From an uncultured Acidobacteriota bacterium (GTDB taxonomy: Bacteria; Acidobacteriota; Vicinamibacteria; Vicinamibacterales; UBA2999), in NCBI GenBank assembly GCA_963814955.1, contig CAWFEX010000011.1, positions 192,796 to 256,795 on the forward strand: a DNA stretch of 64,000 nucleotides, given 5' to 3'. The translations under genes and the position numbers were made by a program. Every line of letters starts with the position of its first letter. Within the stretch, counting starts at the first letter, position 1. Below are positions 2,426 through 38,225 of the stretch, one piece after another. The notes under the pieces are model-generated. The model was not told where the DNA came from. It worked only from the letters and a program-made list of their open reading frames with translations, and did not search any database.

Positions 2426-3712
2426 GTGTCCCCATCAAAGCCGGAACGCGCCGCTCTGGTCGGCCTCGTAAGCGGTCCGGGCCGCCGCCTCGATTCCGAG
2501 CGATCGCTCGCTGAGCTGGCGGGGCTTGCCGACGCGGCCGGCGCCATCGTCGTGCTTCAAGTGATGCAGGAACGACCCAGGCCCGATCCCGCGACATTCA
2601 TCGGGGCGGGCAAGGTGTCGGCTCTGGCGTCCGCCTGCGCCGAGGCAGGCGTGGACGTGGTCGTTTTCGACAACGAGCTGACGCCGGCACAACTGCGTCA
2701 GCTCGAACAGAAGCTCGACTGCAAGGTGGTTGACCGCACGCAGCTGATTCTCGACATCTTCGCGCGGCGGGCGCGAACCCGCGAAGGCAAATGGCAGGTG
2801 GAACTGGCGCAGCTCAAGTACCTGCTGCCGCGCCTCGTCGGTACCGGCACCGCACTGTCGCGGCTTGGCGGCGGCATCGGTACCCGTGGTCCTGGTGAGA
2901 CCAAGCTCGAAACCGACCGCCGCCGCATCCGTACCCGCATCAGGTCGGTTCAGCGGGAAATCGATCACGTCCGGCAGCGGCGCGCTCAGCTCAGAGAACG
3001 GCGGCAGCGACAATCCGTCCCGACGGTCGCCCTGGTCGGCTATACCAACGCCGGAAAGACGACGCTGTTCAACCGCATGACGAACGAACGGGCGGTTGCG
3101 TCAGACGCGCTTTTCGTGACGCTCGATCCCCTTGTCCGCCAGGTACGTCTTCCGGATCGACGCGAGTTGCTCGTATCCGACACGGTCGGTTTCATCGATC
3201 GCTTGCCACACACGCTCGTTGCGGCGTTTCGGGCGACGCTCGAAGAAGTTGCGGAAGCGGATCTGGCGTTGCACGTCATCGATGCGGCGTCGCCGGAACG
3301 TGACCACCACATCGCCGCGGTACGAAAAGTGCTGGAGGAGGTTGGCGCTGCGGAGGTCCCTTCAATCGACGTGTACAACAAGGCGGACATTCTCACTGCT
3401 GATGAACGGCGGCGCATTACCGACCGCGACCCCGGAGCGGCCCTGATTTCGGCGCGCACGGGCGAAGGTATCGACGAGCTCGTCCAGATGATTGCTTCCC
3501 GGGTTGCGCTCGACACGCGGCGCATTACTATTACCTTCGACAGCGACAAGGCGTTCGACCGCGACCAGATTGCCCGGCTCTACCGTGTGGCGCGCGTCGT
3601 GAGCCACGTCGCCACTAACGGCCGCGTCGTGATCGAGGCCGATGTGCCGCGGCGGTACATTGCGCGGCTGACGGCCCCGCAGCCCCCCGGAGAGACTGCG
3701 AATGCGAGCTGA
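2426..3712 (+). CDS. hflX: GTPase HflX
   Basis: HflX N-domain followed by G1 GYTNAGKTTLFN, G3 DTVGF and G4 NKAD. Confidence 0.9.
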   Translation: MSPSKPERAALVGLVSGPGRRLDSERSLAELAGLADAAGAIVVLQVMQERPRPDPATFIGAGKVSALASACAEAGVDVVVFDNELTPAQLRQLEQKLDCKVVDRTQLILDIFARRARTREGKWQVELAQLKYLLPRLVGTGTALSRLGGGIGTRGPGETKLETDRRRIRTRIRSVQREIDHVRQRRAQLRERRQRQSVPTVALVGYTNAGKTTLFNRMTNERAVASDALFVTLDPLVRQVRLPDRRELLVSDTVGFIDRLPHTLVAAFRATLEEVAEADLALHVIDAASPERDHHIAAVRKVLEEVGAAEVPSIDVYNKADILTADERRRITDRDPGAALISARTGEGIDELVQMIASRVALDTRRITITFDSDKAFDRDQIARLYRVARVVSHVATNGRVVIEADVPRRYIARLTAPQPPGETANAS

Positions 3713-5051
3713 ACGGCTTGCCCTCGTTTTGATGATTGCGTTCGTCGCGGCTGGCTGCGCGACGAGGCCGGCGCCGCCCGTCACCACTTCGCCGGCGTTT
3801 CCGGAGTTTGTGTATCCAGTTCCTCCACGTGGTATCGGCACCGTGGATGATGCCGCTCGTCTCGACCGGGGGTGGCGGTTCCTGCAGGCGAACGACCTGC
3901 CGAATGCGGATCTCGAATTCAGCGCCGCTCTGAAACGAACGCCGGCACTCTATCCGGCGCGCGCAGGGAGCGCCTACGTTTCCCTGGCCGGACAAAAGCT
4001 CGATGCGGCACTCAGCGGGTTCGATGCCGTCCTGAAGACGGCACCGACGTATGTGCCCGCGCTGATCGGCCGCGGTCAAACTCTTCTGGCCCTGAATCGA
4101 GACACCGCGGCGCTCGTGGCGTTCGAGGCGGCGCTCGCAGCCGACCCGTCGCTGACGGAGGTACGCCGAAGGGTCGACGTGCTGCGGTTTCGAAGTCTGC
4201 AGGAGTTGATTGAAACCGCGCGGACCGCGACAGCGGCCGGGCGACTGGACGAAGCGGCCGCGGCGTATGAGCGCGCGCTGTCGGCGTCGCCGGATACCGC
4301 GTTTCTGTACCGTGACCTTGGCCTCGTCACACTGCGGCAGGGGAACATCGACTCCGCACTGAATCGATTCCGGCGAGCGGTCCAGCTCGATCCTTCCGAT
4401 ACCGCCTCTTTCATACAAATCGGCCAGCTGCTCGAGCGGCGGGAAGACTTCGCCGGCGCCGAAGCTGCGTACCGGCAGGCGGCAAACAACGATCCGAGTG
4501 CGGAACTGAGCGCGAAGCTCGCGGCGCTTGCGGAGCGGTCGCGCGACGCAAACCTTCCGGCTGAGTTCCGGGCGATTGCGGCGGCGCAGCAGATTGCGCG
4601 GGGCGATTTGGCGGCGCTCATCGGCGTGCGCCTCGAAGACGTCCTGCGGCTCACTCCGGCGAAGGAAGTGGTTGTCACTGACATCGCCGGACATTGGGCC
4701 GCGTCGTGGATTACCGCCGTTGCGCGTGCGGGCGTGATCGAGCCGTTCGCCAACCACACGTTCCAGCCGGGGAGCCCGGTGACCCGGGCCGAGCTGGCGG
4801 GCGCGGTCAGCCGTGTCCTGACGCTTGCGGCGGCGAACCGGCCGGACTTGCGGCCTCATCTCACCGCACGACCCGCAATCGCCGACATGTCAGCCGGCCA
4901 CCTCAGTTACCCGGCCGCGTCGATCGCGGTGTCATCGGGCGTGATGCCTCTCGCGCAGGGCGCTCGTTTCGAAGTGGCACGCCCGGTCTCGGGCGCCGAA
5001 GCCACCAGCGCCATACTTCGCCTGCGCGATCTCACCAGCGCCCAGCGCTGA
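3702..5051 (+). CDS. TPR-repeat lipoprotein with C-terminal SLH-like segment
   Basis: Signal peptide with lipobox (FVAAGC) and repeated TPR-type helices. C-terminal HWAASWI...F.P...VTRAELA resembles an SLH module (tentative). Confidence 0.6.
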   Translation: MRAERLALVLMIAFVAAGCATRPAPPVTTSPAFPEFVYPVPPRGIGTVDDAARLDRGWRFLQANDLPNADLEFSAALKRTPALYPARAGSAYVSLAGQKLDAALSGFDAVLKTAPTYVPALIGRGQTLLALNRDTAALVAFEAALAADPSLTEVRRRVDVLRFRSLQELIETARTATAAGRLDEAAAAYERALSASPDTAFLYRDLGLVTLRQGNIDSALNRFRRAVQLDPSDTASFIQIGQLLERREDFAGAEAAYRQAANNDPSAELSAKLAALAERSRDANLPAEFRAIAAAQQIARGDLAALIGVRLEDVLRLTPAKEVVVTDIAGHWAASWITAVARAGVIEPFANHTFQPGSPVTRAELAGAVSRVLTLAAANRPDLRPHLTARPAIADMSAGHLSYPAASIAVSSGVMPLAQGARFEVARPVSGAEATSAILRLRDLTSAQR

Positions 5052-5674: not shown

Positions 5675-6607
5675 TTAGGTCGCGAGTTTGCTCTTGAAGT
5701 AGTCGACCGTTTTGACGAGACCGTCTTCGAGTCCCACTTTCGGTTCCCATCCAAGCAGAGTTCGCGCCCGCGTGATATCCGGCCTTCGCTGTTTCGGGTC
5801 GTCCACCGGCAGAGGCCGATACACGACCTTGCTCGATGAACCCAGCAATCCGATGATGACCCGCGCGATCTGCTCGATGGTGACTTCGTGCGGGTTGCCG
5901 ATGTTGACGGGATCGTTGGTGTCGGCGTCCATCAATCGGAGCACGCCGTCAACCAGATCGCTGACATAGCAGAAGCTCCGGGTCTGAGTACCATCGCCGA
6001 ACACCGTGACGTCCTCACCCCGAAGGGCCTGCGACATGAACGCAGGAACCGCCCGGCCATCGCGCAGCCGCATCCGGGGGCCATAGGTATTGAAGATGCG
6101 AACGATTCTCGTGTCGAGACCGTGGTAGCGATGATAGGCGAACGTAATCGCCTCGGCGAACCGCTTTGCCTCGTCGTAGACGCCACGCGGGCCGATTGGA
6201 TTGACGTGGCCCCAGTACGCTTCGGTTTGTGGATGTTCGAGCGGGTCCCCGTACACCTCTGACGTCGACGCCAGCACGAAGCGCGCGCGCTTGGCCAGGG
6301 CCAGACCGAGCGCATTGTGGGTGCCGAGGGAACCTACTTTCAGGGTCTGAATCGGTAGCTCGAGATAGTCGATCGGGCTCGCCGGGCTTGCCCAATGGAG
6401 AATGACGTCCACCGGTCCGTCGATGTCGATGTACCGGGTCACGTCATGTCGAATGAACTCGAACGCGCGGCCGCGCAGGTGATGAAGGTTGCCGAGATCG
6501 CCCGTCAGCAGGTTATCCACGCCGACGACCGTGTGACCGCGATCGAGCAGCGCTTCGCAGAGATGCGATCCCAGGAATCCGGCGGCGCCGGTGACGACGG
6601 CTCTCAA
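5675..6607 (-). CDS. UDP-glucuronate decarboxylase (UDP-xylose synthase-like SDR)
   Basis: Rossmann motif GAAGFLGSH, catalytic YDEAK, plus STSEVYGDP and IFNTYGPRM. Probable TTG start at 6607 overlaps (ATTGA) the true stop of the upstream gene. The ORF track shows it fused into a 790-aa ORF. Confidence 0.8.

Positions 6608-27727: not shown

Positions 27728-27738
<11 letters not shown>
27154..27738 (+). CDS. MerR family transcriptional regulator (C-terminus uncertain)
   Basis: N-terminal MerR HTH (YKASEVCEATGVQPYVLRSWEKEF...RLYRQSDL..VLRIKQL). The listed frame runs 11 nt into the tRNA. An alternative frame with a Lys/Ala-rich tail ends at 27727, flush with the tRNA, so an internal indel is likely. 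Confidence 0.7.
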
Positions 27739-27804
<66 letters not shown>

Positions 27805-27813
27805 ATTTTTCCA

Positions 27814-27859
27814 TGGTTGGTTGCAACGTAATCGCAACGGGCGCCGCGAGTGGCGCCCG
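27814..27859 (+). repeat. Conserved two-hairpin block following a tRNA-Pro 3' end (copy 1)
   Basis: ggttggttgcaacgtaatcgcaacgggcgccgcgagtggcgcccgt, with stems GTTGC/GCAAC and ACGGGCGCC/GGCGCCCGT. It is near-identical to 60138-60182. Confidence 0.7.
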
Positions 27860-27883
27860 TCGCTGTTCTGAGAGGGCCTCGCC

Positions 27884-28093
27884 ATGAGCATTCCGAAAGG
27901 CTTCGAACCGCCCGACTTGGATCCGGAAGTCCTCGCAGACGTTCAGGGAGGCCGCGAGGAATTGTTAGAGGCTGTGCGCAGAATCGCCGCCAACCAGGAA
28001 CAAACGAACAAACTGCTTAAAGAGATCCTCGCCGTGCTCATCGCCGGAAACGATGACGGCGAGAAACGTCGCTACCCGCGCGTCTTGACCTAG
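27884..28093 (+). CDS. Hypothetical small protein
   Basis: 69-aa ORF with no recognisable domain. The bases just upstream of its ATG and its first two codons are conserved at 60203, where the reading frame stops after 14 codons. Confidence 0.35.
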   Translation: MSIPKGFEPPDLDPEVLADVQGGREELLEAVRRIAANQEQTNKLLKEILAVLIAGNDDGEKRRYPRVLT

Positions 28094-28145
28094 GCGCTCG
28101 CCAACAGTCCAATCGTTCGACTGGAACCCGGCCCCTCAGAACTAG

Positions 28146-29256
28146 ATGATTCAGGTTCAATTGAAGCTCCGTCTGACGAAGGCTCAGGATCGCACGCTCG
28201 AGCGGTGGCTGTGGCATTTGACCGCCGTATGGAATTGGGCGGTAAAGACGATTGAGCGAGAGGGGCCACGGCTGTCGCTCTATACGCTCTTCGCTCGACT
28301 AGCTGGTCACGGCTCGCGGATCGGTATTTCTGGTCGTGCCGTGCTTGGGACGGCGCAGACAGCCCACGTCGCATGGCGGCGGGCGTATCGCGGTCAGGCC
28401 GGTCGGCCGCGATTGAAGGGTCTGCGGCGGCCGTTGACATCCATTGCGTTTGACTGCTGGAAAACGAAGCCGCGCGGCCGTCGTATCACCGTCCCAATCC
28501 TGGGGGCTGTGCGGTTTCATCCGCAAGACATCCCTGATGGTCACGTTGGGGCAGCGCGGCTGGTGAAGCGTGCATCGGGTTGGTATCTCTGCTTGTTCGT
28601 TCATGCTGAGCCAGCGCCGATTCAGGTGACCGGCGATGGCGAAGTCGGCATAGACCCAGGCTTCTCGTCGCTCGTCACGCTCTCAACGGGTGAGCGCATC
28701 GAGCACCCGCACGAACTACAGGCGGCGGCTGACCGTCTCGGCCAAGCGCAGCGGGGCAACCAGAAACAGCTCGCGGCTCGTATTCAGGAACGGATCGCGA
28801 ATCGTCGAAAGAACCGGAACCATCATCTCTCGCGACGGCTCGTGGCCGAGAATCGCCTCATCGTCGTGTCGGCCGATCAGCACTGCGCCGTTGCTAGACG
28901 TTTCGGAAAGTCAGTTACCAGCGCAGGACATTTTCAGCTTCGGTCCATGCTTGTGTACAAGTGCAGCCGTACAGGCGGTCGCGAGGTACATCGAAGTGTC
29001 CAATCGGCATTCCACCGCCCTTTGACGGTGCAACCGGACGCGCAACACGCGATCTTTGAAAACTGAATACCACTCCTTTTCCGTAAAGCCGGTCGGGCCT
29101 CGCGTTATGCAGGTCGGGCTAATCGCCGTCGCCGACATCCGGAATTCGCGAAAAGTGTTCAAGCAGTCAATCGCTTATCGGATGTCTCTGGTGCCAGCGG
29201 TTTGGCGGTATGCTGCGAGTACCTGGGGGCCGGTCGCGATATGCCGGTCGGCCTAA
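28146..29256 (+). pseudogene. TnpB-like (IS200/IS605 OrfB, RuvC-fold) gene, decayed C-terminal part
   Basis: The 306-aa ORF has LKLRLTKAQ, RuvC-I GIDPGFSS, and LVYKC..GGREV. The expected RuvC-II VVEDL reads VVSADQ. After about 28990 the family pattern continues in the +1 frame (IEVSNRHSTAL, an in-frame TGA at 29023, then ...IAVADIRNSRKVF, which is RuvC-III-like) up to 29256. The zinc-finger cysteines are mostly lost. Confidence 0.65.
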
Positions 29257-29299
29257 TGATTAATTGGGCTGACCATGTAAAACGGGTGGGAGGCGACGT

Positions 29300-30432
29300 T
29301 TGCGCAGGATTAAAAAGACCTTCGAACTTTCGCGCCGCGACGTGCTTCGACTCGTCTCCTCCGCGGCCCTCGGCGTCCCGTTCGCATCGTCCGCGGCTTA
29401 CGCTGGCCAGGGTGAGCGGCAGCTGCCGCACGAAGGGGTGTTCGAACTCGGGGACGTGCGACTTGAATCGGGCGTGACGCTGCCGAATGTGAAACTTGGG
29501 TACAAGACCCATGGCCGGCTCAATGCCGACAAGAGCAACGTCCTCCTCTACCCCACCCCATATCCCGCACAACACGGCGACATCGAGTGGCTGATCGGTC
29601 CGGGCCGGGCGTTAGACCCTGACAAGCACTTCATCATCGTTCTCGATCAACTGGGTAATGGCCTGTCCTCGTCGCCAGGCAACACTCCGTCACCATTCGA
29701 TCGGATGAACTTTCCGATCGTCACGATCAGAGACGATGTTTCGGCGCAGCACAGGTTGGTGAGTTCTGGATTCGGCATTCGACGAGTCGCTCTGGTGACC
29801 GGGTGGTCGATGGGCGCCCAACAAACATTTCAGTGGGCGGTGAGCCATCCGGACATGGTTGAGCGTATCGCGCCGTTTTGCGGCACCGCGAAAACGACGC
29901 CCCACAACGCCGTGTTCCTCCAAAGCGCTCGATCTGCCCTCACCGCAGATGCCGCGTGGATGGACGGCAACTACAAGGACCAGCCGGTCAAGGGGGTGCG
30001 TGCGTTTTCACACGTCTATGCCGGTTGGGCATTCTCGCAACCCTTCTATAAACAGGAACTGTACCGGGAACTCGGATTCACCTCGCTGGAAGATTTCATC
30101 ACCGGGTTCTGGGAGAAGCGATATGCGCGCCGCGACGCGAACAATCTGCTCTCCATGCTCCGTACCTGGCAGCTGAGCGATGTGGGCTCAACCGTGGGAT
30201 ACGGCGGCAGTCTCGAGCGGGCGCTGGGCGCGATCGAAGCTAAGCCACAGTCATGGCGGGAGAGACGGACCTCTACTTCACGCCAGCGGACATCGAGGCG
30301 GACGCGGCATGCATTCCCGGCGCTCGCTTCCAGGTGATTCCGTCCCTCTGGGGTCACATGGCCGGTGCCGGCCTCAACTCGACGGATTCGCAGTTCATTG
30401 AAACGGAGATCAAGGCTCTGCTTGCGATGTAA
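29300..30432 (+). CDS. Tat-secreted alpha/beta hydrolase (homoserine O-acetyltransferase/MetX-like fold), frameshifted
   Basis: Twin-arginine signal SRRDVLRLV..AAYA and nucleophile elbow GWSMGA. The C-terminus ATVMAGETDLYFTP...IKALLAM* lies in the -1 frame after a missing base near 30244. Confidence 0.75.
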
Positions 30433-31154
30433 ATTCGTGACGCGCTGTGGGCACCTGCTGTTGCAGTGCCACCTCGCGGTTTTTCGGACTGGCCGCCCGA
30501 CCAGCGTTTGCAGCACCCGGCGGCGCGCGGGGCGATCGTGAGCCGCCGCGGCTGAAACGCAGACGTTAGCTCGCGATCGACGCCGTAGCGTTTTGTCTCT
30601 CAGGACACCTGACTGACAGACGAGAGCGTAGCTGCACGTTCCCCACAAAGATCGAGCGTTGCAGGCTCACGAAATGCAACCGTGCGTGCAATCTACTGGT
30701 TGCGTCGCCAGCGCGTGCATGCTGATGTGCAAGTATGGCCGCGCCACTCTGCCGCGCAATCGGCCGCCATCCATGCGTCCTCGATCGTCGTGAATTCGCG
30801 GTTCGCTCCCACAGGGCCTAGGCGTGTTCCGAACGGGATGACATCGATCGTCACGAAGATCCCCGGTTTACGTTCTTCTACGAAGCCATCCGACCCATCA
30901 TGGTGGTGGCGGTGCCACTCTCTGAGCTTCGTCGCGTTCACCACGTTCGCCGCTAGCGATGAGGTCTTGCGCCGGTTCGAGGTGGTCATCGTATGCCGTC
31001 CTGACAGCGGGCCGCGGTGCGAGTCACGCGCATCACGAATCTCTCCGCAACGCGTTCAACAGCAGTGGCCGCTCGCAAAATGCGTCGCATGACTTGTCCG
31101 GACACTGTGTGACAGTGCCGACACTTGGAGCCCTAAATCGTCGGTCGCGATTAA

Positions 31155-31412
31155 TTTCCTCGTCGGTTAGACGACTTACAGAAGATTTCGGTCACATCGC
31201 ACGCATCACCCGACTTCGACGACCTCCCACACGAGTACCTCACCGTTCCGGATTTTGCGGCGTATCTGACGGTGGGCGACAAATTGGTCCGGAAGTGGAT
31301 CCGAGCCGGCGTGCTGCCGGCTTACCGGTTTCCGCCGGGGCCGACGGGCGAGGTGCGCATCGCGAAGGCGGACGCGATCGCGTTCATCGAGCGGGCGCGC
31401 TTTCAGAGCTAG
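31155..31412 (+). pseudogene. Excisionase-type HTH_17 (MerR-superfamily) gene remnant without a canonical start
   Basis: Manual translation gives ...EYLTVPDFAAYLTVGDKLVRKWIRAGVLPAYRF..GEVRIAKADAIAFIERARFQS*. There is no ATG/GTG/TTG upstream of the HTH in this frame. The 3' 48 nt are about 90% identical to 60401-60448. Confidence 0.5.
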
Positions 31413-31588
31413 GCCGATCGCTGCTCCTGTTGCTTACGGGTCACCTGCCATTCCGCTTTGCACTCGGAGCAATACCAGTGCAGCTGGATCTTCTCGCCCC
31501 GAATGGTGTGTTGGAGATGGACAGTGCCCGACCTGCCGCAATGAAGGCAGTGGCCTGGCCTCCGAATGGAAACCGGCGTATTGGGCAT
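31409..31588 (-). CDS. Small zinc-ribbon protein (paralogue 1)
   Basis: MPNTPVSIRRPGHCLHCGRSGTVHLQHTIRGEKIQLHWYCSECKAEWQV. It has a CxxC-x21-CxxC-x2-W pattern and about 60% identity to paralogue 2. Confidence 0.55.
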   Translation of the reverse strand: MPNTPVSIRRPGHCLHCGRSGTVHLQHTIRGEKIQLHWYCSECKAEWQVTRKQQEQRSA

Positions 31589-31700
31589 GGTGGAAACCGA
31601 GCCAGGAGAGCGTATCACGGCTACGGTTCGGGAATTTGCTGAGTATGTGACGGTCAGCCCGAAGACGGTCTGGAAGTGGATCTCAAACCGAGAGTCACCC
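31566..31700 (+). pseudogene. Second HTH_17-like fragment (3' end undefined)
   Basis: TVREFAEYVTVSPKTVWKWI matches the HTH_17 recognition helix. Similarity is lost after KWI, and the rest of the 338-aa track ORF has no recognisable domain. Confidence 0.3.
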
Positions 31701-31947
31701 AAGTCCACAGTGCTTTCGTGCGAGCCAGAAGCGGAGCGATCGAATCTAACGTGCGCATCTTCTCGAGGCTACCCGCGTCGCCGTACTGGTCTGTGGGGGT
31801 CACCGGCCACTCGGCTTTGCAGTTTGAGCAAAGCCAGTGGAGGTGAAGTCTTTCGCCGTCAATGGTGCGCCGAAGATCGACAGTCCCTCGGACGTCGCAC
31901 TGAATGCAGCGACCCGGCCTTCGAAGCGAAACCTGGGTGTTCAGCAT
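31654..31947 (-). CDS. Small zinc-ribbon protein (paralogue 2)
   Basis: MLNTQVSLRRPGRCIQCDVRGTVDLRRTIDGERLHLHWLCSNCKAEWPV. The C-terminal tail is longer than in paralogue 1 and may be frame-affected. Confidence 0.5.
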   Translation of the reverse strand: MLNTQVSLRRPGRCIQCDVRGTVDLRRTIDGERLHLHWLCSNCKAEWPVTPTDQYGDAGSLEKMRTLDSIAPLLARTKALWTWVTLGLRSTSRPSSG

Positions 31948-32385
31948 TTGTGTCGATGGCGCGAGAGATCCCACAAGGCCGCATCGGGTGGAGGCCAGCT
32001 ATGCGCTGGGGAGATCCCGCACTGCCCGCCGTGGGAGATCCCTCGCAGTCGCGGTCTGGAGCGAATTTAGTGCCGGTTCACGCGCGACAAAGACCGGCCG
32101 AAATCCGGCGGCCGACACCAGAAGTCGCCGGGCGCATGCCCTTTTTTCCTGGCAGCGCCGGAATGCGCTACGCGCACGCGATGATGAATGCCTGTTCCGA
32201 GATGGAACACGGCCGATCGCGCGCCTCTTTCCACTGGCCACTTGACCTCAAGGCAAGGCGACGCAACCTAAAAGAATCAGGAGAAATCGAATTGTTCACG
32301 GACCTGTGTGCTGGAGATCGTGCAACTCTTGACGTTGCGGAAGCCTGCTTGATAGTGCAATACATTGCAATATACGCTTCAATCA

Positions 32386-32556
32386 GTGACGCCCAAGACC
32401 GCCAGCACCTTTCGTATCGACGACGAGCTGCTCGAAGCTCTCCAGAAGGTCAAGGAACGCGACGGCATTCCGCTATCAGAACAGGTACGTCGAGCACTAA
32501 AGATGTGGCTCGAGTCGAAAGGCGTCAGGCCGAAGCTGCCGGACCGAAGGAAGTAG
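32386..32556 (+). CDS. Ribbon-helix-helix (CopG/Arc-like) protein
   Basis: STFRIDDELLEALQKVKERDGIPLSEQVRRALKMWLE shows a beta-strand plus two helices, the RHH pattern. A GTG start at 32386 is preferred over the track TTG at 32365. Confidence 0.65.
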   Translation: MTPKTASTFRIDDELLEALQKVKERDGIPLSEQVRRALKMWLESKGVRPKLPDRRK

Positions 32557-32619
32557 CAGATCGGAGACGCCGGATGCAGTGAACACCCGACGGCTCCTGA
32601 GCAAGCAGCACGCGTACAC

Positions 32620-32868
32620 GTGCCGACGAGCCTGACGAAGAGTACCACGCCAGACCCTCCGGCCTTCACACTGGAGGCCGTTATGACATCCGCGAAACCT
32701 ACAGTCGTTCCCACCCATCCCTCTCCGCGTGAGCTCGCCAGCGACTTGCAGCTGCAGCTCTTCGAACAGGCGGCGGCTGCGAGGTTGATTGCCAGACTGC
32801 TCGCGAACTTGCACAAACCGACAGCAATCTTAAGCCAGTCGCCAACGAAGTACTCGACGGCCTCGTGA
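32620..32868 (+). CDS. Hypothetical protein
   Basis: 82-aa ORF between the RHH gene and the integrase fragment, with no recognisable domain. Coding status is uncertain. Confidence 0.25.
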   Translation: MPTSLTKSTTPDPPAFTLEAVMTSAKPTVVPTHPSPRELASDLQLQLFEQAAAARLIARLLANLHKPTAILSQSPTKYSTAS

Positions 32869-32944
32869 CCGTCGCACATGGAATCGCGCGCACATGCTCG
32901 GAGGCCGGCGAAAGCATGTCGACGTTCATGAGTGACGGTGCGCG

Positions 32945-33535
32945 ATGAGTGCCACTCGGAAGCGTCGTCGCGTCGGCGGTCTGCGGAAGCGCTGCGAACA
33001 TCGGCCGGAACAGTGGCCGAAGTGTTCGCACGCGTGGCATATCAACTTCCAATGGCGGGGCGTGCACTACCGCATCAGCCTCGATCGGCATCTCGGCAAA
33101 CACATTGAAGCGAAGAGTGACGCCGAGGACGCCGCGGCGGACATCAAGAAGGCGATCAAGGCGGGGAAGTTCGGAGAGCAGCTGCCGGCAAAAGAAGTGC
33201 TCACCCTGGAGCAACTGCTGTCGACCTACATCAAGGAGTACGTCACGCCCGAACGCCCGCGCTCGCTCGTCAACGCGAAGTATCAGGCCGGTGCAATCGG
33301 TCGCCACGAGCTGACGCTGCCGACAGCCGAGCGGCGCAGGTTTGGTGCCTGGCTCGTGGCGGACGTCACGACCGGCGCGCTGGAGAAGTTCCGAGCGGCG
33401 AGCCGTGTCACGAGCCTCGTGAAATCGAAGGACAAGGACGGCAACCCGAGACGAGCTCGTCGCCAAGCTGCAGCTAGTCGAGCCCGGCGCGTCGGGCTTC
33501 GAGTTCCAACGCGTCGGGGTCGAGGTCCACGGTGA
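32945..33535 (+). pseudogene. Tyrosine integrase, N-terminal fragment only
   Basis: GLRKRCEHRPEQWPKCSHAWHINFQWRGVHYRISL... followed by a core-binding SAM-like region (LTLEQLLSTYIKEYV). The catalytic R..HxxR..Y domain is absent in all frames downstream. Confidence 0.6.
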
Positions 33536-33575
33536 CGAGGAAGTGCGGGAGACAGAGGCGTTCGACGGTCGAGGG

Positions 33576-33758
33576 CTACTGTTTCGGCGCGCCCGGTTCG
33601 TCAGTGGACCACCAGTGCCCGCAGGCGGGACAGTGAAAGATCAGCATATGCCGAAGCTTATTCTCGATGAGGGCAACCGGGCGCTCGCACACGGAGCAGA
33701 CGAGGCCGGTGTGCTTCGGTGTGTCGGTGGTGCGCGGCGGACCATCCTGAGTGGGCAT
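33576..33758 (-). CDS. Small zinc-ribbon protein (paralogue 3)
   Basis: MPTQDG...LVCSVCERPVALIENKLRHMLIFHCPACGHWWS. The start ATG overlaps the stop of the upstream ORF (ATGA). Confidence 0.5.
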   Translation of the reverse strand: MPTQDGPPRTTDTPKHTGLVCSVCERPVALIENKLRHMLIFHCPACGHWWSTDEPGAPKQ

Positions 33759-34171
33759 CACTCTCGACCGGGCGTATCGTCGTATTCCGGTACGAGGCGC
33801 CAGCCCAACTTCCAGTTCTGGGCCTGCAACTGGTCGCTCCAACGGAGTGCGCTGGTCCAGTCGTTGAAGACTCGAGACCCGAGCTTGTGGCCGTTGAGGA
33901 ACCAGGTGACGACCGCTCCGTCAGCGCGCGGACTAAGCACCGCATGCGACAACAACAGGCCATCGGCGCGATGCATTCGCCACATGACGGTCGGCGCGTT
34001 ATACACCAACTGATTGGGCACCGCACCCAAGAGGCAAGGCAGATACCAGGACAGAAAATGCCCCTTTACGCCGAAACCGAACAACGCCCGTCTTGGAAGG
34101 CGGCCAACGGGCAGACAAAGGTCAGGCCCAGATGGGGGGCGGACTGTGACCGATAGACGCGCTAGGCGCAC
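33758..34171 (-). CDS. Hypothetical protein translationally coupled to zinc-ribbon paralogue 3 (start uncertain)
   Basis: Core MWRMHRADGLLLSHAVLSPRADGAVVTWFLNGHKLGSRVFNDWTSALRWSDQLQAQNWKLGWRL, with no domain I can name. An alternative start lies at 33985. Confidence 0.4.
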   Translation of the reverse strand: MRLARLSVTVRPPSGPDLCLPVGRLPRRALFGFGVKGHFLSWYLPCLLGAVPNQLVYNAPTVMWRMHRADGLLLSHAVLSPRADGAVVTWFLNGHKLGSRVFNDWTSALRWSDQLQAQNWKLGWRLVPEYDDTPGRE

Positions 34172-34206
34172 GCTTGAATTCGCGACGTGGCGCCCACTGA
34201 AGCGAG

Positions 34207-34437
34207 GTGATACCGATGCCTAGCGCGGTCGCCGATCGCCACGCAGAACGCGTTTTGGAAAGCCTCTGCGCCTTCTGTCTCCAGCCCTTCGAGCCGACGC
34301 GCCCGCATCAACGGTTCTACCGGCCGTCATGTCGAAAGGCGCATTTCGATCAACGTCGGGAGCGCCGACCGGATCTGTTCCTGGCGTGTGCGGATGCGAT
34401 TGAATCAGCCGTCTTTGACCAACTGAATAGCCGGTGA
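34207..34437 (+). CDS. Small Cys-containing protein (zinc-finger-like C..C...F.P.R..QRF...CR)
   Basis: 76-aa ORF. The CAFCLQPFEPTRPHQRFYRPSCRKAH pattern is seen in small phage/plasmid proteins, but the second Cys pair is imperfect. Confidence 0.35.
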   Translation: MIPMPSAVADRHAERVLESLCAFCLQPFEPTRPHQRFYRPSCRKAHFDQRRERRPDLFLACADAIESAVFDQLNSR

Positions 34438-34479
34438 AAGCCGAAGGCCAGAAGCGGCTGCAGAGGAAACGAAGACAGG

Positions 34480-34668
34480 TTAGGTGCTGAGGGCATCGGG
34501 ACAGTCCCACGCGTGCTCACATGCTGGACAAAAGCGCATCATCCCGCCGTAATGGGTGGCGACGACCAGCGCCTTGCGCGACTGACACTGAGGACATTCC
34601 AGACGAAGAATTAGACCCGGGTCTGCTTTCGGAGTAGTTGCGGACGGCGGAGGATGCGTAGAGGCCAT
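34480..34668 (-). CDS. Small zinc-ribbon protein (paralogue 4)
   Basis: ...LECPQCQSRKALVVATHYGGMMRFCPACEHAWDC shares the CxxC...CxxC-x2-W layout. Confidence 0.5.
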   Translation of the reverse strand: MASTHPPPSATTPKADPGLILRLECPQCQSRKALVVATHYGGMMRFCPACEHAWDCPDALST

Positions 34669-35280
34669 GTTGGACTTCTCGCTTCAGCAGTTGCTCCCTT
34701 AGGTGAGGTTCCCGGACATGGGCAGCTCAAATGGGACAGCTCAGGAAAAAGTGATTCACCTTAACACGCAACTCAACCTGGGCCGTTGCGAGCTTAGGCA
34801 GGCTCAGTTAGTGGACCGGAGGGAGCGAACGGCTTTGGCCGAATCCGCACCGGCGGCACACGGTATCGGGCATTTAGGGTCAGGCGAGGAGATCCTAGCC
34901 CAGATGTAACGATGCTTACGCGCAGTGTTTGACGGTTGCGTGGGAATCACAATGGCGCCAGTTGAAGAGCGAGGCCGCCGAGCGTTGGACCTGGAGCCGC
35001 ATTCCCGGTCAGCGAATGTCTAGGAGCGCGAGCGGATGGCTTTGATGAGTTCGGCGATCTCGCGCGTGAGCGTATCGAGGCGTTCTTCAACTCGACCCAA
35101 TCGTTGGAAGTTTTTGCGTACGACGGCCTCGATATTCTCAAACTCGATCCGGCTCACGTTCATCGCTTCGCCGGGGAGTTTCTTACGCCGTTTCGGAGAG
35201 GGGCGACGCTTGGCCACCGGCCGAGCTTAGCTCAGACGGCTGTGTTGAACAATGTGCCGGTAATTCGCCCTCGGACCGGC

Positions 35281-36378
35281 TTACAGCACGCAGGCCTTTC
35301 CCTCGGCAATAACGTCAGCCACTCTTGCCGGCCCAATCCCACTCACGTCCTCGAGTTCATTCACGGAACGAAACGGGTGAAGCTCTCGCAGGTCGACGAT
35401 TTCCAGCGCGCGGGCCGGACCGATGTGGATAACGCCCTGCAGCTGGACGAAGTCAGCGCGGTTGATGTCGATGCAGGAAGGTGGCGGCGATGCCTCCTGG
35501 ACAGGTGAGAGAGACGCGGCCGGCGGCGGCTCCGCGCGGTCTCCGCGCTCGACACGCACCGTATACGTACCGGTCGACTGTGCTTCAACGATCACCGTGC
35601 CATTGATGTCGGTGCGGTACACGCGCGCTCCGGCGTTCGTGTACAAGTCAAGCGCAGCCCGATCGGGCTGCCCGTAACTGTTCCCGGCGCCGGCGCTCAC
35701 GACGACCACTTCTGGTGAAAGCGCGGCGATACCTTCAGCGGTGTCTCCGTTGCTCGAGCCATGGTGACTGGCCTTGTGAACCTGAACCGGCTTCAGCCAT
35801 TCGGCCTGATGCGTTCGCCACCACGCCCATTCGCGCGGCTCTGCGTCACCTGCCATCGACAGCCGGAACGCGCCGTATGCGGCGACGAGCGCCACCGAGT
35901 TGTCGTTCTGATCCCAGTCCGGAATGCCCGGTGGCGGAACCACCATCAGCGACACCTTTCCCATCGTCACTCGTCGCACGGTCGGCTCGAGGAGCTGGCT
36001 GCCCGCAGCAGCGGCGGCTTCCAGGACGCGAGCGTGCGTCTGGGTGGACGCGGCAATACCGTTCTCGAGGTAGTACGGCGGTTTGAGCGCCCTCAGGACC
36101 ATAGGCAGGCCGCCGACATGGTCAGCGTGGTTGTGCGAGGCGATGGCCAGACCGACAGAGGAGATGCCGTTCGCGGCAAGGTAGTCTCGCATCCGTCCGG
36201 AACGTTCGCCGCCGTCATAGATCACGTTCTGGCCTGTCGGACTCTGGATGAGAACGCCGTCGCCTTGCCCCACATCGACGAAATGCACGCGGAGAAGCGC
36301 AGGCTCCTGTGTTGACAGGGTCTGCACCCACGCCAGGAGCAGTACAGCCGCGAGCAGAACACGACGGCCCGTTTTCAT
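35281..36378 (-). CDS. Secreted MBL-fold metallo-hydrolase (ComEC C-terminal-domain-like) fused to ComEA-type helix-hairpin-helix
   Basis: Start MKTGRRVLLAAVLLLA (signal peptide), VDVGQGDG, HNHADHVGG, HHGS, and a C-terminal INRADFVQLQGV.HIGPARA and VSGIGPARV HhH pair. Confidence 0.8.
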   Translation of the reverse strand: MKTGRRVLLAAVLLLAWVQTLSTQEPALLRVHFVDVGQGDGVLIQSPTGQNVIYDGGERSGRMRDYLAANGISSVGLAIASHNHADHVGGLPMVLRALKPPYYLENGIAASTQTHARVLEAAAAAGSQLLEPTVRRVTMGKVSLMVVPPPGIPDWDQNDNSVALVAAYGAFRLSMAGDAEPREWAWWRTHQAEWLKPVQVHKASHHGSSNGDTAEGIAALSPEVVVVSAGAGNSYGQPDRAALDLYTNAGARVYRTDINGTVIVEAQSTGTYTVRVERGDRAEPPPAASLSPVQEASPPPSCIDINRADFVQLQGVIHIGPARALEIVDLRELHPFRSVNELEDVSGIGPARVADVIAEGKACVL

Positions 36379-36669
36379 AAGAATCCCTTGCGACGGCGAT
36401 CTTGCCATCGCCGGCTCTCGATCACAGACCGAAGTTTTCCTGCCGGTCCGCGCGAAGAACCACGAAAGACGAGGGGATCGCCGCGAAAATATTGTGCGTG
36501 CAGTGTCGAAAGTGTACGCGCATTCCCGGCGCCGTCGGTCGAACGCTGAAGCGTCCGGTCCGGCCGAAATGGTTTGTGACCGTTGCAGTTGCGGCCATCG
36601 TGGAGGGGTGCAAAACTGCGCGGGCGCACCCCTTACCACCTGGCGGACGGCATGCAGAACGGTCGAGGT

Positions 36670-37359
36670 ATGACTCGACCATTTTCAACACCGGTTGCGC
36701 TGCTGATCGCGTTGGCGCTCGTGACGCCGGCGTGTTCGGGAGGAAGCAACAACGAGAACCCCCCGTCGGGCATGGTAACCGGGCCGTCGCCCACGCCGTC
36801 GCCATCGCCGACGCCGTCGCCAACTCCAGCTCCAAGTCCGACTCCGGGCTGCTCGGCCAGCGTTACCGGTCTGCCGACGTCGATACCCGGTGCTGGCGGC
36901 CGCTTCCAGTTCGGGATCGGCGCGTCGTCAGGCTGCTCGTGGACGGCTCGGACGGACGTCGGGTGGGCCGACGTTGCTCCTGGTTCCGGTCAGGGTAATG
37001 CCTCGCCGACGCTCAACGTCAACGCGAACACGACCTTTTTCACCCGGCAGTTCACGGTCAATGTGAACGGCCAGGTGATCCAGGCAACACAGGCTGGCGC
37101 CAACTGCTCCTATACGGTGGATCCGACGTCTCTCGAAGAAAGCTTTGAGGGCGGCAGAGCGTGGGTCAACGTCTCGACCACGGAAGGATGTGGTTGGACC
37201 GTGACCGCCAGCGAAGGCTGGATACGCGTGCTGACGACGAGCGGCGCGGGGAGCGCGACGATTTTCATTGAGTTGTCGCCGAACAGCGGCGACGTGCGGA
37301 ACGCCTTCCTGACGGTCGCAGGCCAGCGCGTGGACATCAGGCAGCGGCGTCGCGGCTGA
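36670..37359 (+). CDS. Lipoprotein with Pro/Ser/Thr linker and two C..W-type beta-domain repeats (BACON-like, tentative)
   Basis: Lipobox LVTPAC, a PSPTPSPSPTPSPTPAPSPTP linker, and the repeats SSGCSWTARTDVGWA and TEGCGWTVTASEGWI. Confidence 0.6.
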   Translation: MTRPFSTPVALLIALALVTPACSGGSNNENPPSGMVTGPSPTPSPSPTPSPTPAPSPTPGCSASVTGLPTSIPGAGGRFQFGIGASSGCSWTARTDVGWADVAPGSGQGNASPTLNVNANTTFFTRQFTVNVNGQVIQATQAGANCSYTVDPTSLEESFEGGRAWVNVSTTEGCGWTVTASEGWIRVLTTSGAGSATIFIELSPNSGDVRNAFLTVAGQRVDIRQRRRG

Positions 37360-37392
37360 CACAACAACACCGGGACCGGTTTCATGACCATA

Positions 37393-37414
37393 GGGCGGGC
37401 CTTGACGGCCCGCC
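37393..37414 (+). terminator. GC-rich hairpin after the lipoprotein gene (terminator candidate, no U-tract)
   Basis: gggcgggcc-ttgac-ggcccgcc lies 34 nt after the stop codon. It lacks a T-run. Confidence 0.3.
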
Positions 37415-37435
37415 TGTGGCGCGTACGGCCTAACA

Positions 37436-37460
37436 CCTACTGCCTACTGCCTACTGCCTA
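37436..37460. repeat. CCTACTG heptamer x3.5
   Basis: cctactgcctactgcctactgccta sits in the spacer before the VanZ gene. Confidence 0.6.
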
Positions 37461-37479
37461 ACGCTCGTACACTGATTCC

Positions 37480-37866
37480 ATGAAACTCGCCCTGGTGACC
37501 TGGGCAGCGCTGTGGGCGTATGTGGCTTCACCTTTTCGCTCGTTCAGACTTCGGCCATCGTTCGAGAATGTGTCGTTGGTTCCGTTCACTGACGGCTCGC
37601 CCCGCGGAATCATTCTCAACATCCTTGCCTTCGTCCCGCTCGGGTTCTTTTGCGCTCGTTTGGGATGGAGCCCGAGGGCCGTTATTTTGATCGGGTCTGG
37701 CGTATCCCTGCTCACCGAGGTGCTGCAGCTGTTCTCGACCCGCCGGCACCCCTCGGTCACCGATCTGATCCTGAATACGGTCGGCACCCTGATCGGGATG
37801 GTCGTGGCCAGCACCATGCACAACCCGGAAACGGTCAACACGAATCAAGAGCGTCTGCATCCCTGA
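37480..37866 (+). CDS. VanZ family membrane protein
   Basis: NILAFVPLGFF and E.LQLF...R..S..D...N..G..IG motifs. 128 aa with four TM segments. Confidence 0.7.
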   Translation: MKLALVTWAALWAYVASPFRSFRLRPSFENVSLVPFTDGSPRGIILNILAFVPLGFFCARLGWSPRAVILIGSGVSLLTEVLQLFSTRRHPSVTDLILNTVGTLIGMVVASTMHNPETVNTNQERLHP

Positions 37867-38225
37867 AGCGTGGAATCAATGGAACACGCACCTGCGGACA
37901 AAACTCCGCGGTAGGTGAGACTTTCGATTACAACCTTGTCGCTCACGGTCTGCCCGCTGGCCAGACCAACGAACATGATTGGAATGCGTCTTGATCAGTG
38001 CCTGGATTGTTTGGGAGGGGATGGATGGGAGCCGAGCTCGCAGCCTCTACGAACCACATGGAAAGACACTACATCGAGCGTTTCCAGATCGCGGTATTCG
38101 GCGGCCTGTTGGAATTTGCGTGGTGGTGTCGGAAGGCGTCAACGAACTTCGAACGCCGGCTCCTGCGCGCGGGCGTTTGGCTGATGGATTCGCAGAAACC
38201 TCGGCATCGCCGGTAGCGCCGATTC

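Follow-up and report, generated by a model that had tools for sequence, protein, structure and literature searches.

A 3'-truncated, probably inert tnpB remnant of the rearranged RuvC-II type in a decayed island of an uncultured Acidobacteriota bacterium

The window analysed here, a 64,000-nucleotide (nt) stretch from an uncultured Acidobacteriota bacterium (Vicinamibacterales, UBA2999; assembly GCA_963814955.1, contig CAWFEX010000011.1, positions 192,796 to 256,795), carries a tnpB gene between a tRNA-Pro(GGG) gene and the gene of an alpha/beta-hydrolase (Table 1). As assembled, it appears as an open reading frame (ORF) of 306 amino acids (aa) at 28146-29066 on the forward strand, whose product matches the Pfam family OrfB_IS605 (PF01385) with 33.6 bits against a curated cut-off of 30.5 and also, weakly, HTH_OrfB_IS605. 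This is the only PF01385 match in the whole genome (6.7 Mb in 18 contigs), and the protein itself is single-copy there. At E <= 0.001 the protein has 901 relatives in a database search, the nearest of which, P0002 (376 aa), is 73% identical across residues 1-279. The ORF is a genuine TnpB gene, and the initial annotation of the window had recognised both its TnpB-like N-terminal region and its RuvC-I sequence, GIDPGFSS. It had also stated that no TnpA accompanies the gene, which agrees with the finding that all matches to Y1 transposase in the genome lie at other loci, none of them near tnpB.

Table 1. Position of the tnpB remnant, its motifs and the surrounding features within the window
Feature	Position	Strand	Basis or remark
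tRNA-Pro(GGG), left border of the island	27729-27805	+	ARAGORN; Rfam tRNA, 66.3 bits
Insertion of ~8.8 kb relative to genus relatives G004 and G002	27814-36640		degraded integrative or prophage-like island carrying the tnpB remnant
69-aa ORF directly upstream of tnpB	27884-28093	+	ORF list; no Pfam family at a credible score
3'-truncated tnpB	28146-29025	+	as assembled, the reading crosses a 1-nt insertion; Pfam OrfB_IS605
RuvC-I Asp, D170 in GIDPGF	28653-28655	+	D in 116 of 116 relatives
S242-A-D244, family form of the RuvC-II motif (S242 28869-28871, D244 28875-28877)	28869-28877	+	Ser where canonical TnpB has Glu
GG where contig L087 has a single G	28985-28986	+	1-nt insertion creating the frameshift; alignment of window and L087
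Alternative catalytic Glu of the rearranged RuvC-II site, GAA (E in Y-I-E-V)	28993-28995	+	in frame only in the sister contig's reading
47-nt segment from the breakpoint	29014-29060	+	second copy at C9:30798-30843, 85% identical; blastn against the genome
End of family homology (~29018), then TGA (29023-29025)	29018-29025	+	DNA alignment with L003, L085 and L086; profile; shuffle test
Bipartite motif unit upstream of the hydrolase gene	29082-29257	+	copies 29082-29098, 29100-29123 and 29234-29257; box GTTTGGCGGTATGCTGCGAG at 29200-29219
Weak match to the right-end hairpin model (CCGGAAT...GTTCAA)	29135-29162	+	covariance model R1, 14 bits, E = 0.37, top hit of the 64-kb window
Alpha/beta-hydrolase with a twin-arginine (Tat)-type N-terminus, island cargo	29300-30432	+	Pfam Abhydrolase_1, E = 1.1e-10

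The gene has kept its N-terminal part, RuvC-I, the RuvC-II motif and the strand beta-5 with an alternative Glu, and has lost what normally follows. Among the best 120 of the 901 relatives, nearly all are 347-404 aa long and all except P0001 and P0060 contain the zinc ribbon PF07282. A tblastn search with the nearest relative runs along the ORF frame to ...GGRE, passes into the +1 frame at YIEVSNRHST and then ends. The +1-frame continuation, YIEVSNRHSTAL, closes at the TGA at 29023-29025, where the family alignment (...ST-x-x-C) has the first Cys of the zinc finger, and as far as this codon the initial annotation was borne out. It went on to describe a resumption of the family pattern up to a RuvC-III-like IAVADIRNSRKVF, i.e. 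a zinc finger and RuvC-III part that is out of frame, and for this nothing was found. In the DNA alignment with three relatives (L003, L085 and L086) similarity is gone past ...cattccacc, at ~29018. When the six frames of 28940-29420 are searched with a C-terminal profile of the family (its last 81 residues), nothing is detected beyond ...YIEVSNRHST; Pfam has no match in the ORF at 29056-29256, and PF07282 has none in six frames of the genome. Furthermore, local DNA alignment of 29017-29300 with the seven closest relatives, in their 3' parts, reaches a best score of 21, compared with 21.5 +/- 2.3 for dinucleotide shuffles, and 184 of the 300 shuffles score at least as well. As positive control, the frameshifted relative L114/P0060 gives 45.6 bits with the C-terminal profile on its out-of-frame C-terminus and a score of 53 in the shuffle test. 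Because the profile, Pfam, PF07282 and shuffle searches are all empty, the zinc finger and the RuvC-III part are deleted, not out of frame, and the candidate IAVADIRNSRKVF is rejected. The idea that the TGA is a recoded or mutated first Cys with read-through was likewise rejected; the column fits and nothing family-like follows.

The control is itself a pseudogene of the family. P0060 (298 aa), from locus L114 (JGI 3300064092 contig; region 3640-3900) beside VirB8 and T2SSE genes, has suffered a deletion of ~40-45 nt in its zinc finger, after which RuvC-III can still be read in a different frame. At the window's own breakpoint, the 47-nt segment recurs elsewhere in the genome (Table 1) in an intergenic position with no TnpB nearby. 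By eye, these 47 nt resemble right-end hairpin or zinc-finger DNA (CCGCCCTTT, GCAACACG, ttgacgg/gcaaccgg); the right-end profile and the shuffle test lend no support to this likeness, nor to the internal deletion between short repeats that it had suggested.

An independent JGI metagenome contig of 5.3 kb (L087), 99.83% identical to the window over the same locus, has the same truncation point, the same TGA at 29023 and the same downstream sequence. It differs in having a single G where the window has GG, so that in L087 the gene reads as one clean ORF of 292 aa ending ...GGREYIEVSNRHSTAL-TGA. A second 1-nt insertion relative to L087, at ~27574, breaks up a MerR-type gene; in the sister contig this gene is one uninterrupted ORF of 228 aa. 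Both of the 1-nt insertions found in the 5.3 kb break ORFs, and the caution expressed in the initial annotation about the indel rate of the assembly was justified. The extra G at 28985/6 is more likely an indel of the assembly than a mutation that arose later at strain level, and on this comparison the frameshift is probably not biological. Other genes of the genome are also split between frames, namely the hydrolase (near 30250-30340, with ORFs 29300-30337 and 30253-30432 in different frames) and integrase genes at C9:4127-4625, C12:82940-83477 and C7:194982-195417.

The initial annotation had noted IVVSADQ at the RuvC-II position, where IVVEDL was expected, and had taken the missing Glu as a sign of decay or inactivation. 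The sequence is there as described; its interpretation is not upheld. In an alignment with 116 full-length relatives, on which all conservation counts given here are based, the column of S242 is Ser in 116 of 116 and that of D244 is Asp in 116 of 116, and an alternative Glu (Y-x-E-V) lies 41 residues after S242 in 115 of the 116 (99%). The RuvC-III motif HDRDxNAA is conserved at 90% or more among the same full-length relatives. The canonical Glu column was set by a HMMER alignment to the AI-designed nuclease 9yyg, which places the family Ser opposite the Glu of VEDL; in the HMMER alignments with ISDra2 TnpB (8bf8/8exa, 8h1j) the residues that include the Glu stay unaligned, as an insertion at the spot of S242. 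Since S-x-D, accompanied by the downstream Glu, is invariant across a mobile family, IVVSADQ is no sign of decay or of nuclease death.

TnpBs and Fanzors with a rearranged RuvC-II site, in which an inert residue occupies the canonical position and a conserved Glu is found ~45 residues off as an alternative, have been described previously, and one of them, TvTnpB, is an active RNA-guided nuclease (PMC10530073); the rearranged branches were also judged to be active in a separate study (PMC10691335). Judged by its alignment, the absence of the canonical Glu in the present family is a family-wide trait of this published rearranged type. The family shares with the TnpB2 of Jiang et al. (2023, Sci Adv, PMC10530073) and the RIIr of Altae-Tran et al. 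(2023, PNAS, PMC10691335) a conserved non-acidic residue in place of the canonical Glu (here Ser), a conserved alternative Glu (here ~41 residues downstream, in beta-5), the association with Y1 TnpA and the occurrence in phage-like contigs, and its full-length members likewise keep the RuvC-I Asp and the RuvC-III DRDxN. The replacing residue differs, being Gly or Pro in those papers and here Ser, with an invariant Asp two residues on. The window copy belongs to the rearranged type by its Ser and alternative Glu, an assignment that does not extend to a numbered RIIr branch, and it differs from the described proteins as a broken member without zinc finger, RuvC-III or omega RNA.

The TnpB family to which the window copy belongs is large and mobile, of IS200/IS605 type, and is also carried by phages. 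An Acidoferrales metagenome-assembled genome (MAG) holds four near-identical copies, each with a Y1 TnpA upstream and a sharp right end, ...GGAGGTTCAA (also written ...GGAATCCCCGCCCTTTAGGGCAGGGGAGGTTCAA), and a single Waddliaceae contig holds seven copies. The full-length relatives are probably active RNA-guided nucleases, to judge from this mobility and from TvTnpB, whose activity has been published. The closest relatives of the window copy (63-73% identity; L085, L100, L101, L102-L107 and L108-L113) lie in phage-like contigs in which neighbouring ORFs abut or overlap, among small ORFs and genes of the HNH, DUF1064, HTH_17, T5orf172 and Big_2 families. They keep a right-end motif, GGAAYCGC-hairpin-GCGAAGTTCA, which straddles the tnpB stop and lies wholly inside the ORF in L003 and L108. 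This setting and the right-end motif fit the phage-borne RuvC-II-rearranged branches of Altae-Tran et al. (2023), and the setting alone fits an arrival of the window's tnpB on a prophage-like element. On one of the related contigs (L086, NCBI metagenome contig JAWVHA010013790.1) a second, shorter TnpB-like gene of 301 aa with a PF07282 match is located at 2049-2954, ~900 nt downstream of the first.

In full-length members of the family the omega-RNA scaffold is encoded by the ORF's 3' end together with the right end. Multi-copy genomes were used to define the family right end, GGAAT/C C-hairpin-AGGTTCAA, for which a covariance model was built; these right-end observations, and those on the octamer below, cover L020-L022 and L043 (Acidoferrales MAG) and L006-L041. 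A nhmmer search with the right-end profile of the closest clade has no match downstream of the tnpB remnant. The covariance model returns the weak hit at 29135-29162 listed in Table 1, which could be a vestige of the right end of the insertion sequence (IS) or a chance match, and it also picks out 28117-28160, which takes in the tnpB start. The octamer AGGTTCAA is present both at this 5' end of the gene (start ATGATTCAGGTTCAA, MIQVQ; 28146-28160) and at the transposon right end (...GGAGGTTCAA). A right-end terminus of TCAA is also that of IS608.

The region downstream of the gene contains copies of a GGTCGG(G)C(C)TAAT-type motif, three of which had been pointed out in the initial annotation as lying where an omega-RNA (reRNA) scaffold would be. 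The copies are real and non-random, with five matches in the 64-kb window against 0.62 expected, and the 24-nt direct repeats 29100-29123 and 29234-29257 are 88% identical. The proposed role did not hold up, in that the motif unit recurs at no fewer than five TnpB-free loci before unrelated genes. Six loci carry the motif GTTATGCTGCGAG...GATATGCCGGTCGGCCTAC, and paralogous units were located at C15:624784-624954, C15:85366-85443, C15:93154-93370, C15:93964-94036 and C6:939891-939937, with no TnpB gene near any of these five. The unit of ~170 nt consists of GTTATGCAGGTCGGGCTAAT, a spacer of ~75 nt, GTTTGGCGGTATGCTGCGAG, a 14-nt spacer and GATATGCCGGTCGGCCTAAT, and that at C15:624784-624954 has the same two-copy layout and spacing as the window's. 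The consensus reads …GCGTTATGCTGCGAG-N17-20-GATATGCCGRTCGGCCTACTAnTAGTTA…, often with a second GTTATGCAGRTCGGCCTAA box ~135 nt upstream. Its 3' box precedes the candidate start codons of unrelated ORFs by ~25-55 nt, and among these ORFs the window's alpha/beta-hydrolase is the one for which a family search was made; the exception is C15b, where only a 72-aa ORF starts within ~25-55 nt and the long ORF begins 238 nt downstream.

The fold of 29020-29299 is no better than that of shuffles (z = -1.26) and Rfam matches no family there. Guide-like 24-mers taken after four candidate scaffold ends have no meaningful genomic match of at least 14 nt, low-complexity matches apart, in a test that is weak as no scaffold end can be defined. 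An omega-RNA scaffold in 29067-29299 was rejected on the ordinary fold, the absence of an Rfam match and the recurrence of the motif at TnpB-free loci, and the downstream repeats are not such a scaffold and not part of TnpB. The unit is probably a promoter-type upstream motif of the hydrolase gene, and the motif may represent a class of promoters or operators peculiar to the organism or to its islands. At locus L098, positions 6510-6556 (G000 C15:~624510-624556), ~230 nt from the paralogous unit, there is a minus-strand 3'-half fragment of a tRNA (T-arm and CCA-type end), with no complete tRNA called, which suggests another old integration site.

The tnpB remnant is situated in an island. Synteny with four genomes of the same genus holds through tRNA-Pro(GGG), and the relatives' homology stops at 27810-27860; in G004 and G002 the tRNA is followed by homologues of window 36641-38200, so that synteny resumes at 36641. 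The intervening sequence contains the 69-aa ORF, the tnpB remnant, the hydrolase, an ORF with a weak HTH_17 (excisionase-type) match and small zinc-ribbon ORFs, and broken pieces of mobile elements abound in it. No integrase catalytic domain was found in 27814-36640, and no distal repeat of the tRNA end is detectable for the 8.8-kb insertion; an ORF at 32945-33535 that had the look of an integrase N-terminus has no Pfam match. Neither the TnpB family, sought in 40 relatives including the four of the same genus, nor the hydrolase, sought at the syntenic locus of the genus relatives, was found. A tblastx comparison of the phage-like relatives' contigs with the island for shared neighbours gave only noise, and outside this genome the island region is known only from the 99.83%-identical strain represented by L087.

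Together these results are best explained, with a probability of about 86%, by an inert, single-copy, 3'-truncated remnant of a tnpB of the rearranged RuvC-II type in a decayed island. The gene would have come in with an element of integrative or prophage-like type, which inserted downstream of tRNA-Pro(GGG) and subsequently decayed. A deletion or replacement from ~29018 would then have left only the 5' four-fifths of tnpB, taking away the right end and, within the gene, the zinc finger, the RuvC-III Asp and the 3' stretch that encodes the omega-RNA scaffold. Deprived of all these, the protein would be unable to cut, to be guided or to be mobilised, and is thus most probably an inert remnant. 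The initial annotation had favoured a dying IS1341-type element and in substance this stands, the gene being single-copy and without TnpA, its zinc finger, RuvC-III, omega RNA and right end being lost and its island being decayed; what falls away are the arguments from the loss of the Glu and from the frameshift. IS1341-type (tnpB-only) elements of the IS200/IS605 family likewise have a stand-alone tnpB with no tnpA nearby. They differ from the window copy, which has no detectable left or right end and no second copy in the genome, lacks the 3' fifth of the gene and has nearest relatives that are not free-standing IS copies but lie within phage-like arrays of genes.

Some of the observations count against an inert remnant left by one clean deletion. 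The retained part of tnpB shows no erosion: the 292-aa product has one private residue in 158 well-conserved columns (rank 65 of 117; mean of the relatives 2.05), and this residue, V241, adjoins S242 at a position where all 116 relatives have Phe or Trp. As the retained 289 residues are not eroded, the truncation is probably recent in evolutionary terms; in principle, the sequence would fit either a recent truncation or a remnant under constraint, and purifying selection would account for the uneroded state as well as recency does. The 292-codon ORF is also intact in L087, and the differences between the two copies of tnpB (one synonymous and one non-synonymous change and the indel) are too few for a selection test. 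Furthermore, the 14-bit right-end match at 29135-29162, as the top hit of the window, hints that the history of the 3' side was more complex than a single clean deletion. A variant that alters only this history supposes internal deletions or rearrangement, with the ~28 nt at 29135-29162 (CCGGAATTCGCGAAAAGTGTTCAA) as a vestige that ends in TCAA like the right end of the family. The hit lies ~115 nt past the breakpoint on the correct strand, resembles the family's ...GGAAT/C C-hairpin-AGGTTCAA terminus and has no counterpart in the paralogous C15 motif unit. However, its E value is at the level of noise, the nhmmer and shuffle searches are negative, and it falls inside the spacer of the host motif unit, a unit as long as its C15 paralogue, which together make this variant unlikely.

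The constraint that an uneroded remnant might imply leads to readings in which the truncated protein has a function. TldR proteins are reportedly nuclease-dead, TnpB-like repressors (attributed to Wiegand et al. 2024), and the initial annotation had kept a domesticated derivative of this kind as an alternative, in which the 292-aa protein binds DNA, with or without an RNA guide, and regulates a neighbour such as the Tat-type hydrolase. The intact ORF in L087, the uneroded sequence, a catalytic triad made incomplete by truncation and a gene with a repeat-bearing upstream region directly behind would all suit such a role. Like the TldR proteins and the inactivated, immobilised TnpBs of Altae-Tran et al. 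(2023), the window copy has an incomplete RuvC triad, a single copy and a non-transposon neighbour gene. However, those proteins keep a downstream guide-RNA scaffold, are conserved with a partner gene across species and carry a guide that matches a promoter. At the window locus the omega-RNA-encoding ORF end and the right end are gone, the downstream region has an ordinary fold with no Rfam match, its repeats are common to TnpB-free loci, and the (weak) guide search found no match elsewhere in the genome. The gene is also absent from the 40 relatives searched, the hydrolase is no conserved partner, with the whole 8.8-kb region missing at the syntenic site, and the best 120 of the 901 relatives include no conserved short-form clade, the only other short one being the frameshifted pseudogene. 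The TldR-like alternative is accordingly very improbable. Just as improbable is that selection has kept the 292-aa protein as an island protein that binds DNA independently of a guide or with a new one; such a protein might act on the repeat-bearing region upstream of the hydrolase and, if real, would show an exaptation of TnpB in its very first stage. It is harder still to credit that the truncation is an artefact, i.e. that an ordinary full-length TnpB IS was garbled by an indel-prone assembly. The two frame-breaking insertions relative to L087 and the hydrolase and integrase genes split between frames speak for it, but an independent metagenome assembly has the identical truncation, TGA and downstream sequence, the loss of ~210 nt of coding sequence and the right end is beyond the reach of single-base indels, and zinc-ribbon sequence is absent from the genome in any frame.

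Truncated TnpB genes in decayed islands are common and an inert remnant of this kind matters little in itself. Its value lies in what it means for the annotation of such genes. The frame-breaking single-base indels of this assembly mean that any frameshift argument made on the genome needs read support. A C-terminal profile of the family, used together with a pseudogene control, separates a domain that is out of frame from one that is absent. Finally, the family of a TnpB should be checked before the absence of the canonical RuvC-II Glu is read as inactivation.

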